Source: a virus
Taxonomy: Duplodnaviria; Heunggongvirae; Uroviricota; Caudoviricetes
IMG/VR virus record: IMGVR_UViG_2718218434_000001
Length of the DNA: 30,763 nt
Direction: 5' to 3' (one strand)
Numbering within the stretch: position 1 is the stretch's first letter; each line of letters begins with the position of its first letter. A program made the translations under genes and the position numbers. The notes beneath the pieces are model-generated. The model had not been told where the DNA came from. It did no database searches and worked only from the letters and a program-made list of their open reading frames with translations. Shown piece after piece: positions 5,994-10,605 of this stretch.

Positions 5994-6401
5994 TTATTGA
6001 TGCTTGTTGCGTTTGCGAGCCTCTAATAGCTCGGTGAACAGGCGATTAAAATTCTCAACGCGGGCGCGGAGTTCGCTGAGTTGTGCTTGTTGCTCTGATT
6101 TAGGAAGTGCGCGATACAAACGCAGCATCTCTAACTCATCTTCCGATAAGTCTAAGGCACTATCGAGTGAAACAGGGGGAGCTGGTGTTTTGTCCTCGTC
6201 GCCAAACAGTATCCAGGTTGGTGAACATTGCAATACCTCGGCGAGGCGATGCAAATTTTGCCCGCGCGGGGCTGTATGGTCACTTTCCCATAATGAAATT
6301 GATGAGCCAGATACGCCAGCAGCTTTGCTTAAACCGTTTTGACTTAAGCCTACCTGCTTACGTCTTTCTCTAATGCGTTGACCTAAAGTTTTCTCGTTCA
6401 T
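5994..6401 (-). CDS. dicA: DicA-like HTH (XRE-family) prophage repressor, 135 aa from internal Met
   Basis: HTH segment (LSQNGLSKAAGVSGSSISLWE) and LQCSPTWILFGDEDK motif shared with recalled DicA; divergent from a Cro-like gene. Confidence 0.75.
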   Translation of the reverse strand: MNEKTLGQRIRERRKQVGLSQNGLSKAAGVSGSSISLWESDHTAPRGQNLHRLAEVLQCSPTWILFGDEDKTPAPPVSLDSALDLSEDELEMLRLYRALPKSEQQAQLSELRARVENFNRLFTELLEARKRNKHQ

Positions 6402-6478
6402 ATTTAGATATCTTAATAACCCTTGACTTGAGATTCCTTGAGTGATTAGCATTGAGAAAACTCAATGCTGGAGGTGCG
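6402..6478. promoter_or_regulatory. Divergent promoter/operator region between dicA-like repressor and Cro/DicC-like gene
   Basis: 77-bp spacer between divergent start codons containing repeated CTTGAG / TTAGATATCTTAA elements; operator identity not verified. Confidence 0.45.
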
Positions 6479-6706
6479 ATGTTTAAATCAGACGTAATTA
6501 ATTTTTACGGTACGAAAGCCAAAGTAGCGAAAGCTGCTGGCGTTGACCCATCTGCTGTTTCTCAATGGCAAGAGCTGGTTCCTGAAGGTCGCGCGATGCG
6601 TCTACAGGAGGCATCTGGCGGCGAGCTTCTGTATGATCCCAAGGTTTATGACGAATATCGTAAGACGAAGCGGGCGGGGCGGTTGAACAATGAAAATCAC
6701 TCCTGA
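6479..6706 (+). CDS. dicC: Cro/DicC-like (YdaS-type) small HTH regulator
   Basis: GGAGG RBS 5 nt before ATG at 6479; translation MFKSDVINFYGTKAKVAKAAGVDPSAVSQWQ... is a Cro-like HTH; divergent to repressor. Confidence 0.65.
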   Translation: MFKSDVINFYGTKAKVAKAAGVDPSAVSQWQELVPEGRAMRLQEASGGELLYDPKVYDEYRKTKRAGRLNNENHS

Positions 6707-7211
6707 ACAGGCTCGTGAGGCTCTGGATGCCTGGATATGTCGACCAGGAATGACACAGGAGCAGGCGACGATATTAATCACTGAAGCATTCTGGGCTTTG
6801 AAAGAGCGCCCGAACATCGATGTTCAGCGTGTCACAGATGAAGGTGGCGCGGTTGATCAGCGAGCGCTTGGCGTTAATCGAGTGAAGATATTCGAACGCT
6901 GGAAGGCTATCGACACCAGGGATAAGCGTGAAAAGTTCACGGCGCTAGTGCCTGCAATTATGGAGGCTATCCGGATTAATGATTTCAGGTTGTATCGTGA
7001 AATTAGTGACGGAAAAAGCATCACGTACATGATCGCCGGGTTAAACAAAGAATATGGCGATGTGGTGGAATCCGGACTGCTTTTTGCTGATCCTGCCGTA
7101 GTGGATCGTGAAACTGACGAACTTATAGAAAAAGCAATTGCTTTCAAACTTGCGTATCGACAGCAATACCAACAAAAAGCTGGATGGAATTATGAGCCTT
7201 CTTTTTGCTGA
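6690..7211 (+). CDS. Early-region regulatory protein (YdaT-like / CII-position protein)
   Basis: 173-aa ORF overlapping the end of the Cro-like gene, in the position occupied by ydaT/cII in related prophages; family assignment uncertain. Confidence 0.45.
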   Translation: MKITPEQAREALDAWICRPGMTQEQATILITEAFWALKERPNIDVQRVTDEGGAVDQRALGVNRVKIFERWKAIDTRDKREKFTALVPAIMEAIRINDFRLYREISDGKSITYMIAGLNKEYGDVVESGLLFADPAVVDRETDELIEKAIAFKLAYRQQYQQKAGWNYEPSFC

Positions 7212-8157
7212 ACGCCCACTGGTTATAAACACACAGCTTGCGATGAAGATTGGCTTAAATGAAGCCATTGTGTTGCAGCAGTTGCATTACTGGTTGAGAG
7301 ATACCAATTCCGGCATGGAATGTGATGGTGTTCGCTGGATTTACAACACAACGGAACAATGGCTGGAACAGTTCCCATTCTGGTCAGAGTCAACGTTAAA
7401 GCGCGCGTTTGCAAGTCTGAAAACGCTGGGGCTTTTGCGTTGTGAAAAGCTCAATAAATCAAAGCGCGATATGACCAATTTCTACACGATTAACTATGGG
7501 AGCGAGCTTTTAGATGATGGCAAATTGAGCGAATCCATCGGTTCAAAATGCGCCGCTCCATCAGGTCAAAATGACACGATGGAAGAGGTCAAAATGAAAC
7601 GCTCCATTGGTTCAAAACGACCCAATGTCATCGGGTCAAAATGGCCCGATGATCCTACAGAGAATACAACAGAGATTACTACAGAGAATAAAAACACTTT
7701 TCGTCCGGAAGCTTCGCAACCGGACCCGCAGACGGCTGAACAAGATTTTTTAATCCGGCACCCTGGCGCAGTTGTGTTTAGTGCGAAAAAACGCCAGTGG
7801 GGTAGCCAGGAGGATCTGGCGTGTGCGCAGTGGATATGGGGGCGGATCGTGGGTCTCTACGAACAGGCCGCCAGTGATGATGGCGAGATCATGCGACCAA
7901 AAGAGCCTAACTGGACTGTCTGGGCCAATGATGTGCGCACAATGCGGATGCTGGATGGCAGAAGCCACAGACAAATTTGTGAAATGTTTGGTCGGGTACA
8001 GCGGGATCCATTCTGGGTAAAAAACATCATGAGCCCGTCAAAGCTCCGCGAAAAATGGGACGAACTGGTCATCCGCCTGGGGCGTTCACCTGTACAGCGT
8101 TGTGTTAATCATATTTCTGAACCGGATACAGAAATTCCGCCTGGTTTCAGAGGATAA
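7192..8157 (+). CDS. Replication initiator (O-like replisome organiser) with internal origin
   Basis: N-terminal region resembles phage replication-initiator N-domains; coding sequence contains five iteron-like repeats (IGSK peptide repeats) followed by AT-rich direct repeats, as in lambda O/ori. Confidence 0.6.
   Translation: MSLLFAERPLVINTQLAMKIGLNEAIVLQQLHYWLRDTNSGMECDGVRWIYNTTEQWLEQFPFWSESTLKRAFASLKTLGLLRCEKLNKSKRDMTNFYTINYGSELLDDGKLSESIGSKCAAPSGQNDTMEEVKMKRSIGSKRPNVIGSKWPDDPTENTTEITTENKNTFRPEASQPDPQTAEQDFLIRHPGAVVFSAKKRQWGSQEDLACAQWIWGRIVGLYEQAASDDGEIMRPKEPNWTVWANDVRTMRMLDGRSHRQICEMFGRVQRDPFWVKNIMSPSKLREKWDELVIRLGRSPVQRCVNHISEPDTEIPPGFRG
7534..7700. repeat. Candidate prophage replication origin: five ~14-bp iterons (consensus ATCGGTTCAAAATG) spaced 22-25 bp, then AT-rich TACAGAGAATA direct repeats
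   Basis: Iteron copies starting near 7537, 7559, 7585, 7604, 7629; TACAGAGAATA repeated at 7656 and 7678; seen directly in sequence. Confidence 0.55.
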
Positions 8158-8197
8158 GTTTTGATTTCAGGTCATGAGGTAATTTTAAGGGGGACTT

Positions 8198-8599
8198 GTG
8201 GCAAAAGTTTTTACACAAGAAGAGCGGGAAAAAATTAAAGGGCAGGTGGTGGAACTCGTGCGCCAGAGCGGTCGTGAGACGTTACGGCAACTGGAAGCTA
8301 AAACAGGTGCGACTAGATATCTGATGAGCGTTCTTGCCAGAGAGCTGGTAGCCAGTGGCGATGTATACAACTCCGGCTACGGGTTATTCCCATCTGAACA
8401 GGCGCGTAAGGACTGGCAAAACGCCCGCAAAAAACTCTCGAGGGCAAAGGTGAAGAAAACAGCTGTGGTTGATCCGGACCTTATCTGGTCGTTACCTGAT
8501 GGAGAAATACGTCGCTACGACAGTCGCCTAAACATAATCTGTCGCGAGTGCCGGATGAGTGAAGTTATGCAGCGCATACTGGCATTTTATCAGGGATAA
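8198..8599 (+). CDS. Hypothetical protein (133 aa), GTG start
   Basis: AAGGGGGA RBS before GTG; basic protein with no recognised family; occupies the slot where a helicase loader (P/DnaC-like) would be expected but is too small and dissimilar. Confidence 0.55.
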   Translation: MAKVFTQEEREKIKGQVVELVRQSGRETLRQLEAKTGATRYLMSVLARELVASGDVYNSGYGLFPSEQARKDWQNARKKLSRAKVKKTAVVDPDLIWSLPDGEIRRYDSRLNIICRECRMSEVMQRILAFYQG

Positions 8600-8817: not shown

Positions 8818-10605
8818 TTAAGTCTGAGCCTCACTCTCTTGGCCATAAGTGGCTTGCCAGTATCTCGCCGTAGGGTTCATTAGAATGTGCAATACAAGCC
8901 ACCATGCAAAAATGCAGGGAGGTTGATTGTAGTAACCGGCAGGCACATATCCGTGAGCTAGTTGATTTCGTAAATCACCATAGATTTTATCTACCAGTAA
9001 GGCCTGAAGATTGCCAATTATGTCTACGCCGAAAGCTTCAATAATCAGTGGATTATCTAGTAATCCCTTGAGTCCATTTCGCTCTTGCGAACCGTCCCCG
9101 TGAAGCTGCGATGGTTCCTCACCTTTAATTTTAGCCACATATCTCAGACTATTTTCGATCTGGGGAATCAACACGTGGCATGCCGTCATAAAATCTCCAT
9201 TGAAACCGCAAACCATACCCTTGATGAAAAACTCTTCATGCCCAAACGGGATGAAGGGATGATTGATGAACATATCGCGAAAAAACGCCTCCGAGATTGG
9301 ATATTTCATTGTGATCTCATCTGTAGCAGGAATAATTTGCCCAGCTACTGCCAACTCATGGTCGATACGCATTCTCGTCATCATTATGGGCCAAATAACT
9401 GCCCCATTTGCATCATCAATCCCCAATCCTGCGGGTATGCGAGCAAGTGTCATTCCCTCATGATCAATATGTGTTGATCCAAACATCCAAGCTATGCTGT
9501 TGGCCTTTTGTTCTATTGCTTGAGCCTTAAGTCTCTCAATGCTGGTTGGCCGACAGACCAGCATCGCAAGTCTGAAAACCATATCAAACAAATCTCTTCC
9601 GACTACCCGACTCTTGGCTTGATGGACAATCTCACTAATATCTTGAGGGGGAGACTGAAGGATAGACATCTGGTGACGGGATTCGATTTGGTAATCACGC
9701 ATTTCTTCATACAGCGCAAGACGTTCTATTCGGGTTCCTGGAATATTAGCCAGTGCTTCAATAGCATTCTGCATGCAGGCTGCCGAAATCATACCGCCAT
9801 CTTGGAATTTTGATTCTTCCAGATGTGTATCGGCAAGAAGCCGCCAGAATTCAAACTGTGTATCTCTGTCACAGCACCTATTCGCAATCGGGATTGCGGT
9901 TTTACAGGCATCGACGGCAAATGAAAATAATTTTTGAGCCAGATAGTTTTTTGTCAGAAACAGGAGTTCCTGGGCAATAAAAGATGGCTCACTCACTTTA
10001 CAGTCGATATCGAGTTGCAGGAGTCGCAGCGGATAAGGTGAATCGCCTTGTTCTCTGGTACGTTCATACTCTGCTAGTAGATGTGCCGAAAGCTGATCAA
10101 ATTCATCCCTGAAATCAGTATTCTTTCGAAAAAAACAACACAGCCTAAGCGCACGCTCTAGGCGTTCTAAAGCACTAACCCACGTCCCTTGCGATGTCAT
10201 AATAGCTATACTGGACGCATAATAAGCACGGACTGCCAGCAAAGGAAAACGGATTCCACCAATTTTACGAACCCAAAGTGTATCAGCAATACGAGCTTGA
10301 AGTTCGGGTAGCTCTATCGTCGGGCAAAATTGAGAAAGTACCTCCAGCGACAACCCGTTAATGTCATCCGGAATTGCAGATCTACCTTGGCTGCTTTGAA
10401 AGCACGGACCAAATGGTACCTGTGGATTTTCGGGACGAAAGTGAAAACCGCAAATATGGGTTAGCAGTCTTATCTCCGCTCTTCCATCACCTAGGCTAGA
10501 AAGATACTTTGTGATATCAAAGCAGGTAACTGGCAGCTTACTCTGGATTAAGGGGGATAAATCAATAGTGTTAAGTTCGTCGAGGCTGATATTAATATCG
10601 TCCAT
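8818..10605 (-). CDS. Orphan 595-aa protein, unknown function; candidate single-gene anti-phage/abortive-infection effector with C-terminal HEPN-like R-x4-H motif
   Basis: Long ORF with strong RBS (AAGGTGA 4 nt before ATG); on the strand opposite to flanking early genes; flanked by noncoding spacers; C-terminal DLRNQLAHG fits the Rx4-6H HEPN signature; no other motif recognised. Confidence 0.8.
   Translation of the reverse strand: MDDINISLDELNTIDLSPLIQSKLPVTCFDITKYLSSLGDGRAEIRLLTHICGFHFRPENPQVPFGPCFQSSQGRSAIPDDINGLSLEVLSQFCPTIELPELQARIADTLWVRKIGGIRFPLLAVRAYYASSIAIMTSQGTWVSALERLERALRLCCFFRKNTDFRDEFDQLSAHLLAEYERTREQGDSPYPLRLLQLDIDCKVSEPSFIAQELLFLTKNYLAQKLFSFAVDACKTAIPIANRCCDRDTQFEFWRLLADTHLEESKFQDGGMISAACMQNAIEALANIPGTRIERLALYEEMRDYQIESRHQMSILQSPPQDISEIVHQAKSRVVGRDLFDMVFRLAMLVCRPTSIERLKAQAIEQKANSIAWMFGSTHIDHEGMTLARIPAGLGIDDANGAVIWPIMMTRMRIDHELAVAGQIIPATDEITMKYPISEAFFRDMFINHPFIPFGHEEFFIKGMVCGFNGDFMTACHVLIPQIENSLRYVAKIKGEEPSQLHGDGSQERNGLKGLLDNPLIIEAFGVDIIGNLQALLVDKIYGDLRNQLAHGYVPAGYYNQPPCIFAWWLVLHILMNPTARYWQATYGQESEAQT

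Follow-up and report, generated by a model that had tools for sequence, protein, structure and literature searches.

A lambda-type replication module with a DnaT-type initiator tail and no helicase loader gene in a Qin/DicA-type prophage of Escherichia coli

The stretch of DNA analysed here, IMG/VR virus record IMGVR_UViG_2718218434_000001 (30,763 nucleotides; hereafter the window), is a complete Qin/DicA-type lambdoid prophage of Escherichia coli. It is 100% identical to E. coli PSJ-07 at the Qin locus, where it adjoins ynfA and rspAB. This report concerns its early-right replication module: the gene for a lambda-O-like replication initiator, the origin-like repeats inside that gene, and the C-terminal tail of the initiator, which matches the end of the primosomal protein DnaT. 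The features of the module are listed below.

7192-8157, plus strand: replication initiator, 321 aa (PHROG 391 'replication initiation O-like', E 3e-92)
7192-7506, plus strand: winged-helix N-domain, aa 1-105, presumed to bind the iterons
7513-7725, plus strand: disordered interdomain linker, aa 108-178 (predicted local distance difference test, pLDDT, 23-42), varying in length in homologues
7536-7651, plus strand: array of five 23-bp iterons in phase, each partly palindromic about TCAAAA (repeat analysis; kept in relatives)
7536-7558, 7559-7581, 7582-7604, 7605-7627 and 7629-7651: the iteron copies, spaced 23, 23, 23 and 24 bp from start to start
7655-7702, plus strand: three 12-bp CTACAGAGAATA repeats and an AT-rich, purine-skewed stretch, the presumed DNA-unwinding element
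7738-8082, plus strand: lambda-O-type C-terminal helical domain, aa 183-297
8092-8157, plus strand: DnaT-type C-terminal tail, aa 301-321, VQRCVNHISEPDTEIPPGFRG, with the stop codon
8198-8599, plus strand: DUF977/Ren-like basic protein, 133 aa (Pfam PF06163; PHROG 142)

An initiator with a DnaT-type tail and no loader gene

The initiator belongs to no Pfam family (no match at E ≤ 0.1) and is a 'hypothetical protein' in RefSeq, where the coding sequence of E. coli PSJ-07 has identical coordinates. Two phage records label it 'Primosomal protein I' in RAST-style annotation. The full-length AF2 (AlphaFold2) model was poor (pLDDT 55.6) and was used for the domain boundaries and the fold of the N-domain only. 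The winged helix differs from that of lambda O, which scores 123 bits against Phage_rep_O (PF04492), a family to which the N-domain of the window's initiator does not belong. The C-domains of the two proteins are homologous (BLASTP of aa 147-294 against lambda O 135-270, 34% identity, E 3e-27).

The tail was identical at 15 of 21 residues to residues 159-179 of E. coli DnaT (primosomal protein I, whose gene shares an operon with dnaC; PDB chains 2ru8 and 9zbt), and the conserved DnaT end, SEPDxxIPPGFRG with its free carboxyl group, is present on the initiator (tail peptide ending in GFRG, VNHISEPDTEIPPGFRG). Against the DnaT profile the tail was matched by hhalign at E 2e-5. The NCBIfam DnaT model NF002770 gave 16.3 bits, over profile positions 160-179 only, and its full-length cut-off of 201 bits was not reached. 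The tail is predicted to be disordered. Once it was removed, profile comparison of the initiator with DnaT gave no match, and the C-domain of DnaT, a three-helix bundle that binds single-stranded DNA (ssDNA), was not found in the initiator. The helical C-domain was considered as a DnaT fold and rejected, being of the lambda-O type. Since only the tail is common to both proteins, the initiator is not a member of the DnaT family. An earlier reading of this DNA (the sequence-only reading), which had raised a DnaT-like domain in the C-terminal half, is thus upheld for the tail and not for the C-domain.

That reading had also noted a basic 133-aa protein unlike P or DnaC-type loaders and no recognisable helicase loader, and both observations held. 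The 133-aa protein (isoelectric point, pI, 9.7) matched PF06163 (DUF977) with 94.8 bits over residues 1-133 (cut-off 22.1) and PHROG 142, 'Ren-like', at E 2e-44. The motif ECRxSxxMxRiLAxY at its C-terminus is also present in lambda Ren, the similarity being confined to the last ~20 aa (E 4e-6). DUF977 was the sole significant Pfam match, with neither PF01695 AAA+ nor PF06992 found and GP46 far below its cut-off; there was no match in NCBIfam or PADLOC and no informative one among PDB sequences, so that none of these comparisons gave loader homology. No match to DnaC, YdaV, lambda P or DnaB was obtained at E ≤ 0.3 when these were searched by tblastn against the whole 30.7-kb window. Beside the initiator no P, DnaC-like or DnaB-like gene is present; instead the DUF977 gene comes next, after a spacer of 40 nt.

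Genes of the DUF977 family also stand after a P-type loader (locus L321) and after DnaC-type loaders (Rac, L147 and L251). In L147 the order is YdaV-YdaW and then a DUF977 gene 90% identical to that of the window. In other loader-less modules the ren position is taken by a PerC-like protein or a methyltransferase, and phage LLS has no DUF977 or ren-position gene. Because DUF977 genes follow loaders of both the P and the DnaC type, the 133-aa protein was taken to be the product of a ren-position gene and not a substitute loader. Its candidacy as a helicase loader was rejected on the DUF977 and Ren-like profiles and on the place of DUF977 after real loaders in L321 and L147.

Tails of the GFRG type were found on four unrelated scaffolds: DnaT itself, whose gene lies directly upstream of dnaC; Rac YdaU (DUF1376; end ..VNTVSLPDSAIPPGFRG), whose gene lies directly upstream of that of the DnaC-like YdaV, a protein 50% identical to DnaC; initiators with a lambda-O C-domain and at least three different N-domains; and the O protein of phage LLS (HTH_36 + Phg_2220_C; end ..VDTKIPEGFRG). 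In loader-less lineages the linker before the tail diverges freely and D-x-x-[IV]-P-x-G-F-R-G-COOH is fixed. Phage LLS resembles the window in having an O homologue of the same tail class and neither helicase nor loader, and differs in its HTH_36 N-domain, its Phg_2220_C C-domain and the 15-bp phasing of the repeats in its initiator. Rac (ydaU-ydaV-ydaW) and modules like that of locus L157 share the initiator tail and a downstream gene of the DUF977 family; in these modules the gene for a DnaC paralogue (PF01695) starts 6-12 nt beyond the stop codon of the initiator, whereas in the window the tail is followed by the 40-nt spacer and DUF977.

The last ~75 residues of YdaU (L003, 4120-4977) aligned to DnaT 111-179 (L004, 3979-4518) with 40% identity (E 9e-9). 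This alignment takes in the helical C-domain as well as the tail, and the order ydaU-ydaV mirrors dnaT-dnaC. Alignment and matching gene order together suggest a joint domestication of dnaT and dnaC from an initiator-loader cassette of a phage, both genes having been acquired with one module. In the literature searched, no paper was found that ties O-only initiators (O homologues encoded with neither helicase nor loader), YdaU or lambda-type tails to DnaT; the text and supplements of the 2026 preprimosome paper (PMC13377028) state nothing on contacts of DnaT residues 160-179.

Tail class and the neighbouring loader gene

The relation of the tail to the gene next to it was examined in a GTDB set (one genome per species, 74 loci) and in IMG/VR. 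Three tail classes in the GTDB set were paired with the following neighbours.

Tryptophan-acidic tail (WNxxEaWExxL or NTDWxxGV): 33 loci; lambda-P-like gene next in 33 of 33
xPxGF(R/K)G tail: 14 loci; DnaC-like gene next in 1, no loader in 13, P-like gene in 0
QDYRAGVxxDGxF tail (Oxalobacteraceae): 7 loci; DnaC-like gene next in 7 of 7

A further DnaC-like case with a GFRG tail, L253, has a truncated open reading frame (ORF) call and was left out of this table. Tail class and loader class were associated at a Fisher probability of 3e-12, a value that ignores the kinship of the loci, and no mismatched pair of tail and loader was seen among the 33 + 14 + 7 genome loci and 159 viral loci.

In IMG/VR, all 80 loci with relatives of the C-domain had the xPxGFRG end; 18 of the 80 had a DnaC-like gene ~12 nt downstream, and in 62 no loader lay within 6 kb. 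Of the initiators that precede a YdaV-like loader, 79 of 79 ended in PPGFRG, one of them with three extra residues, and these comprised at least three types of N-domain. The scans of IMG/VR led by the YdaV and lambda-O alignments returned near-identical E. coli prophages only, and the YdaV set was used just for this tail count.

Two close relatives show the switch at the level of DNA. Protein P0034, the closest relative with a tail of another class, is 75% identical to the window's initiator, ends in ..DWNSADGWEDVL and stands in the same DicA/Cro/YdaT context. A P gene was predicted beforehand from its tail, and contig L321 indeed has a PF06992 lambda P gene next, then DUF977. DNA homology between the window and the P0034 locus runs from 6576 to 8081 and breaks at codon ~297, the boundary of C-domain and tail. 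Locus L157 has the window's initiator with the same tail (90.7% DNA identity through the stop codon) and a PF01695 DnaC-type, YdaV-like gene 6 nt further on. The window's module therefore looks like a loader-less derivative.

The end of the window's initiator, ..IPPGFRG, differs from that of lambda O, ..LTNTDWIYGVDL (also given as ..LDLTNTDWIYGVDL). Tryptophan and acidic residues abound in tails of the lambda O type (NTDWIYGVDL, HWNSAEAWENTL and the like), which were seen in loci L258-L317; lambda O itself lies in L085 at 687-1586. That tryptophan-acidic tails precede a P-family gene in every one of their loci suggests that the last ~12 residues of lambda O are a P-docking element. The DnaC-like genes next to the third tail class (loci L284-L299, from Duganella, Janthinobacterium and others) are 31-40% identical to DnaC. 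The Oxalobacteraceae hosts of these initiators are not known to have a chromosomal dnaC.

Origin, setting and spread of the module

Five iterons and AT-rich direct repeats had been placed inside the O-like gene, as in lambda, by the sequence-only reading, and repeat analysis confirmed both. The best iteron copy, CATCGGGTCAAAATGGCCCGATG, is a 7-bp inverted repeat flanking the TCAAAA core. With one mismatch allowed, the core GGKTCAAAAYG occurred six times in the window, five of the six within the array and on one strand. The window-wide count is not significant (2.9 expected); clustering in the array is, with P ~1.5e-9 after correction for all positions, so the significance of the array lies in clustering and phasing only. 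Directly to the right of the iterons the three 12-bp CTACAGAGAATA repeats (7655-7693) are 69% AT and 69% purine on the top strand. The highest AT content of any 40-bp stretch in 7100-8200 was found at 7663-7702 (72.5%; window mean 55%). Iterons and AT-rich block lie 345-460 nt into the initiator ORF and make up the DNA that codes for the interdomain linker.

Position and phasing of the array and of the 12-bp repeats are kept in homologues of E. ruysiae, E. albertii, Trabulsiella (with six iteron copies) and Rahnella, independently of the loader type of the module. The peptide TENTTEITTEN, encoded by the ACAGAGAATAC repeats (7655-7693), is common to initiators with unrelated N-domains, which points to a constraint at the level of DNA, as for an unwinding element, and not of protein. 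Initiator variants of 290 aa in E. coli (P0018-P0023) lack exactly 31 residues (93 bp), corresponding to four of the five iterons. This loss probably arose by recombination between iterons 1 and 5, and the origin of prophages with the 290-aa initiator may be crippled.

The likeness to lambda extends to the order cro, cII-like, initiator and ren-like gene. In both phages each partially palindromic iteron has a TCAAAA-type core at its centre, the iterons lie in linker-coding DNA, and an AT-rich block comes after them; the array begins 345 nt into the window's initiator gene as against 349 nt into O (lambda iterons 349-433 nt). The window differs in its five iterons on a 23-bp phase, where lambda has four annotated 18-bp sites spaced 20-24 bp, and in having no P gene. 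On this anatomy the initiator gene region is a predicted lambda-style, intragenic theta origin. Lambda O + P, P22 18 + 12 and Rac YdaU + YdaV each bring a partner; the window phage brings no helicase or loader.

The neighbouring genes and signals are as follows.

5994-6452, minus strand: DicA-type prophage repressor (NCBIfam PRK09706 DicA, E 1e-71; Pfam HTH_3)
6423-6452, plus strand: candidate pR-like promoter 5' of the cro-like gene (consensus match only, 9 of 12 hexamer positions)
6479-6706, plus strand: DicC/P22-Cro-type regulator (NCBIfam DicC, E 3e-49; Pfam P22_Cro)
6690-7211, plus strand: YdaT/cII-like activator (Pfam YdaT_toxin; PHROG 163 cII-like, E 2e-40)
8818-10605, minus strand: 595-aa protein, DUF7380 + DUF4209 (PADLOC PDC-S39 match, E 2e-102)

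From its gene context, the DicA-type repressor would control rightward transcription across the origin. The promoter and terminator scan gave the one weak pR-like match listed and nothing informative inside the module. The end of the YdaT/cII-like gene overlaps the start of the initiator gene (7192-7211). In some assemblies the two ORFs are called as one fusion (P0002-P0004, 448 aa, PF06254 + initiator), which could be a frameshift or an annotation artefact at this overlap. The 595-aa gene is placed between the ren-like gene and the hokD/nin region. PDC-S39 is a candidate defence family of PADLOC, and this gene is likely a moron or anti-phage gene of the prophage.

The module was found at 97-98% identity in three phage records deposited as complete genomes, HannyBb, mEp460_ev081 and PhiR42_1; in HannyBb (45 kb; module 97.9% identical) no helicase or loader is annotated. 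Collinear junctions of tail, 40-nt spacer and DUF977 were present in 2990 of 5426 complete E. coli genomes (55%). By tblastn and by the annotation of the prophage, the window has an O homologue and no helicase or loader in the module or the rest of the phage, and its module is a member of the recently noted O-only class: 34 of 314 Enterobacterales lambdoid phages, and phage LLS, are described as encoding an O homologue only (Genome Res 2025, PMC12315714). According to the available part of that paper, none of the 34 has been studied experimentally, replication in this class 'is not yet understood', and LLS forms plaques though loader-less; a DnaT-like tail is not mentioned there (PMC12315714).

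In the GTDB set, modules with a GFRG tail were confined to Enterobacterales, save for two 100%-identical E. coli contigs in other metagenome-assembled genomes (MAGs) and one unclassified MAG. It was in Enterobacterales that a phage gene was domesticated as dnaC (PMC5109545). The two contigs, L247 (JAEWTL010000124, 'Bacillota bacterium' MAG) and L248 (JAGZPX010000007, 'Veillonella parvula' MAG), are identical or nearly so to the window prophage region, with 100% tblastn identity to the C-domain query and 99-100% DNA identity in a 200-bp tail region. As they match an E. coli prophage despite their Firmicutes MAGs, they almost certainly reflect mis-binning or contamination.

Helicase recruitment: proposed route and alternatives

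The anatomy of the module, its homologies, the absence of a loader, the identity of the tail and the covariation and co-inheritance of the tail with DnaC-type loaders were observed directly. On these grounds we consider it somewhat probable (roughly 55%) that the initiator tail docks DnaC-type loaders and lets the module use the host DnaB-DnaC complex. On derepression, transcription from the cro-side promoter would pass through the cro, cII-like and initiator genes. Initiator dimers would bind the five phased, bent, palindromic iterons in their own linker-coding DNA, and the AT-rich repeat block beside them would melt. With no helicase or loader supplied by the phage, the DnaT end ..PDxxIPPGFRG-COOH that the initiator carries after its lambda-O-type C-domain may serve as a portable docking motif for DnaC-family loaders. 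Like DnaA at oriC, and as DnaT is supposed to do at restart forks, the initiator would capture host DnaB6-DnaC6 directly at the melted origin, and DnaC would load DnaB. Like DnaT, the initiator must bring DnaB-DnaC to ssDNA exposed by something else. If the tail does dock host DnaB-DnaC, neither P nor chaperone-driven release of P would be needed. Iteron binding, melting and, above all, the contact of the tail with DnaC (or with DnaB-DnaC) are the steps that we infer. The DnaT tail lends support to the earlier idea that host primosome proteins may be recruited directly by the initiator, with the refinement that only the tail is DnaT-like and the C-domain is of the lambda-O type.

Several points weigh against this proposal. 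A DnaT-DnaC interaction is undocumented according to reviews (PMC5778457, PMC11087952). The possible recruiter put forward in the 2026 preprimosome paper is the N-domain of DnaT and not its tail (PMC13377028). DnaT lacking residues 154-179 has ~two-fold lower affinity for ssDNA and binds it less cooperatively (PMC4132743), and the tail may therefore act in some DNA-related way. The DnaC-like loaders of Oxalobacteraceae pair with another tail, which makes the GFRG motif lineage-specific and not universal to DnaC-like proteins. The loci that covary are phylogenetically non-independent, and because the tail-coding DNA adjoins the loader gene, simple linkage in mosaic genomes could account for some of the covariation.

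The tail could instead mimic DnaT for entry into the PriA pathway, docking PriA/PriB or replacing DnaT in the preprimosome at the melted origin, with DnaB-DnaC arriving by the normal restart route. PriA, PriB and PriC are the known partners of DnaT, whose C-domain docks PriA via a conserved hydrophobic surface (PMC13377028); PriA-dependent primosome assembly is established for phiX174 and ColE1-type replicons (PMC5778457), and no other part of the initiator resembles DnaT as closely as the tail. This route is nevertheless improbable: the reported contacts of DnaT with PriA/PriB are made by its helical C-domain and acidic linker, both absent from the initiator, the tail switches in step with the phage-encoded loader and with nothing related to PriA, and Rac-type modules with a DnaC paralogue of their own still retain the tail. 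No greater weight is given to direct contact of DnaB by the lambda-O-type C-domain (or the N-domain), as in many plasmid Reps and DnaA, in which case the tail would bind ssDNA or serve oligomerisation where the origin has melted, and its pairing with loader type would be an artefact of linkage. The C-domain core is common to P-type, DnaC-type and loader-less modules and must have a loader-independent job, the loader gene does adjoin the tail-coding DNA, and DnaT truncated after residue 153 loses ssDNA affinity and cooperativity (PMC4132743). Yet LLS is loader-less and has the tail without a lambda-O-type C-domain, the tail is invariant where the flanking linker drifts in loader-less lineages, mismatched pairs of tail and loader are absent from both the genome and the viral loci, and DNA binding would leave three mutually exclusive tail chemistries in one host range unexplained.

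More doubtful still is that the module is an incomplete remnant which has lost ydaV-like and ydaW-like genes and replicates only with the DnaC paralogue of a co-resident prophage (e.g., Rac), or never. The relatives L157, with the same initiator and a YdaV-like loader, and L147, with YdaV-YdaW before its DUF977 gene, speak in its favour; Rac-type ydaV is carried by many E. coli strains, including K-12, the growth host of LLS, and the 290-aa variants show that modules without four of the iterons exist. Rac ydaV is, however, repressed in lysogens by RacR. Both the initiator ORF and the iterons of the window are intact, and they are conserved; 55% of complete E. coli genomes carry the loader-less junction, and the module occurs in the complete-genome records HannyBb, PhiR42_1 and mEp460_ev081. 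The incompleteness considered by the sequence-only reading thus holds for descent, given the DnaC-like gene of L157, and not for function, in view of these 2990 genomes, the complete phage records and the plaque-forming LLS. A new kind of helicase loader in the 133-aa DUF977 protein, replacing P or DnaC, is scarcely credible. Its gene does come immediately after that of the initiator, and its product is basic and has no characterised function; against this stand the Ren-like profile and shared Ren motif, the dispensability of lambda ren for replication, the recurrence of DUF977 genes after P-type and DnaC-type loaders, and the other or missing occupants of that position in loader-less modules and LLS. 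Survey data on the O-only class, with 34 of 314 lambdoids and plaque-forming LLS, likewise speak against a remnant (PMC12315714).

The tail-docking reading can be extended, more tentatively and with the odds somewhat against the whole. D-x-x-[IV]-P-x-G-F-R-G-COOH might be a portable docking peptide for enterobacterial DnaC-family loaders at large, and DnaT might use its tail to bring DnaB-DnaC to restart forks, the missing link of the PriA-PriB-DnaT pathway. The dnaT-dnaC operon would then be a domesticated phage cassette of the ydaU-ydaV type (initiator C-terminus + loader), and loader-less lambdoids would replicate by mimicking DnaT, perhaps in competition with it for DnaC in lytic growth. 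The last ~12 residues of lambda O would likewise dock P.

In its anatomy the module is a usual one among lambdoid phages; its novelty lies in the logic of the tail and in the handle that this offers on a long-standing question about DnaT. Although lambdoid replication is textbook material, the O-only class was flagged only in 2025 (34 of 314 phages), and more than half of complete E. coli genomes carry the loader-less junction found in the window. Should the docking hypothesis be wrong, the module is still a clean and widespread lambda-type origin wholly reliant on host helicase loading. The DnaT-type tail and its strict covariation with the loader give the O-only class a concrete and cheaply testable mechanism, and a peptide of 7-15 residues becomes a candidate answer to how DnaT hands the fork to DnaB-DnaC, an old question in replication restart.

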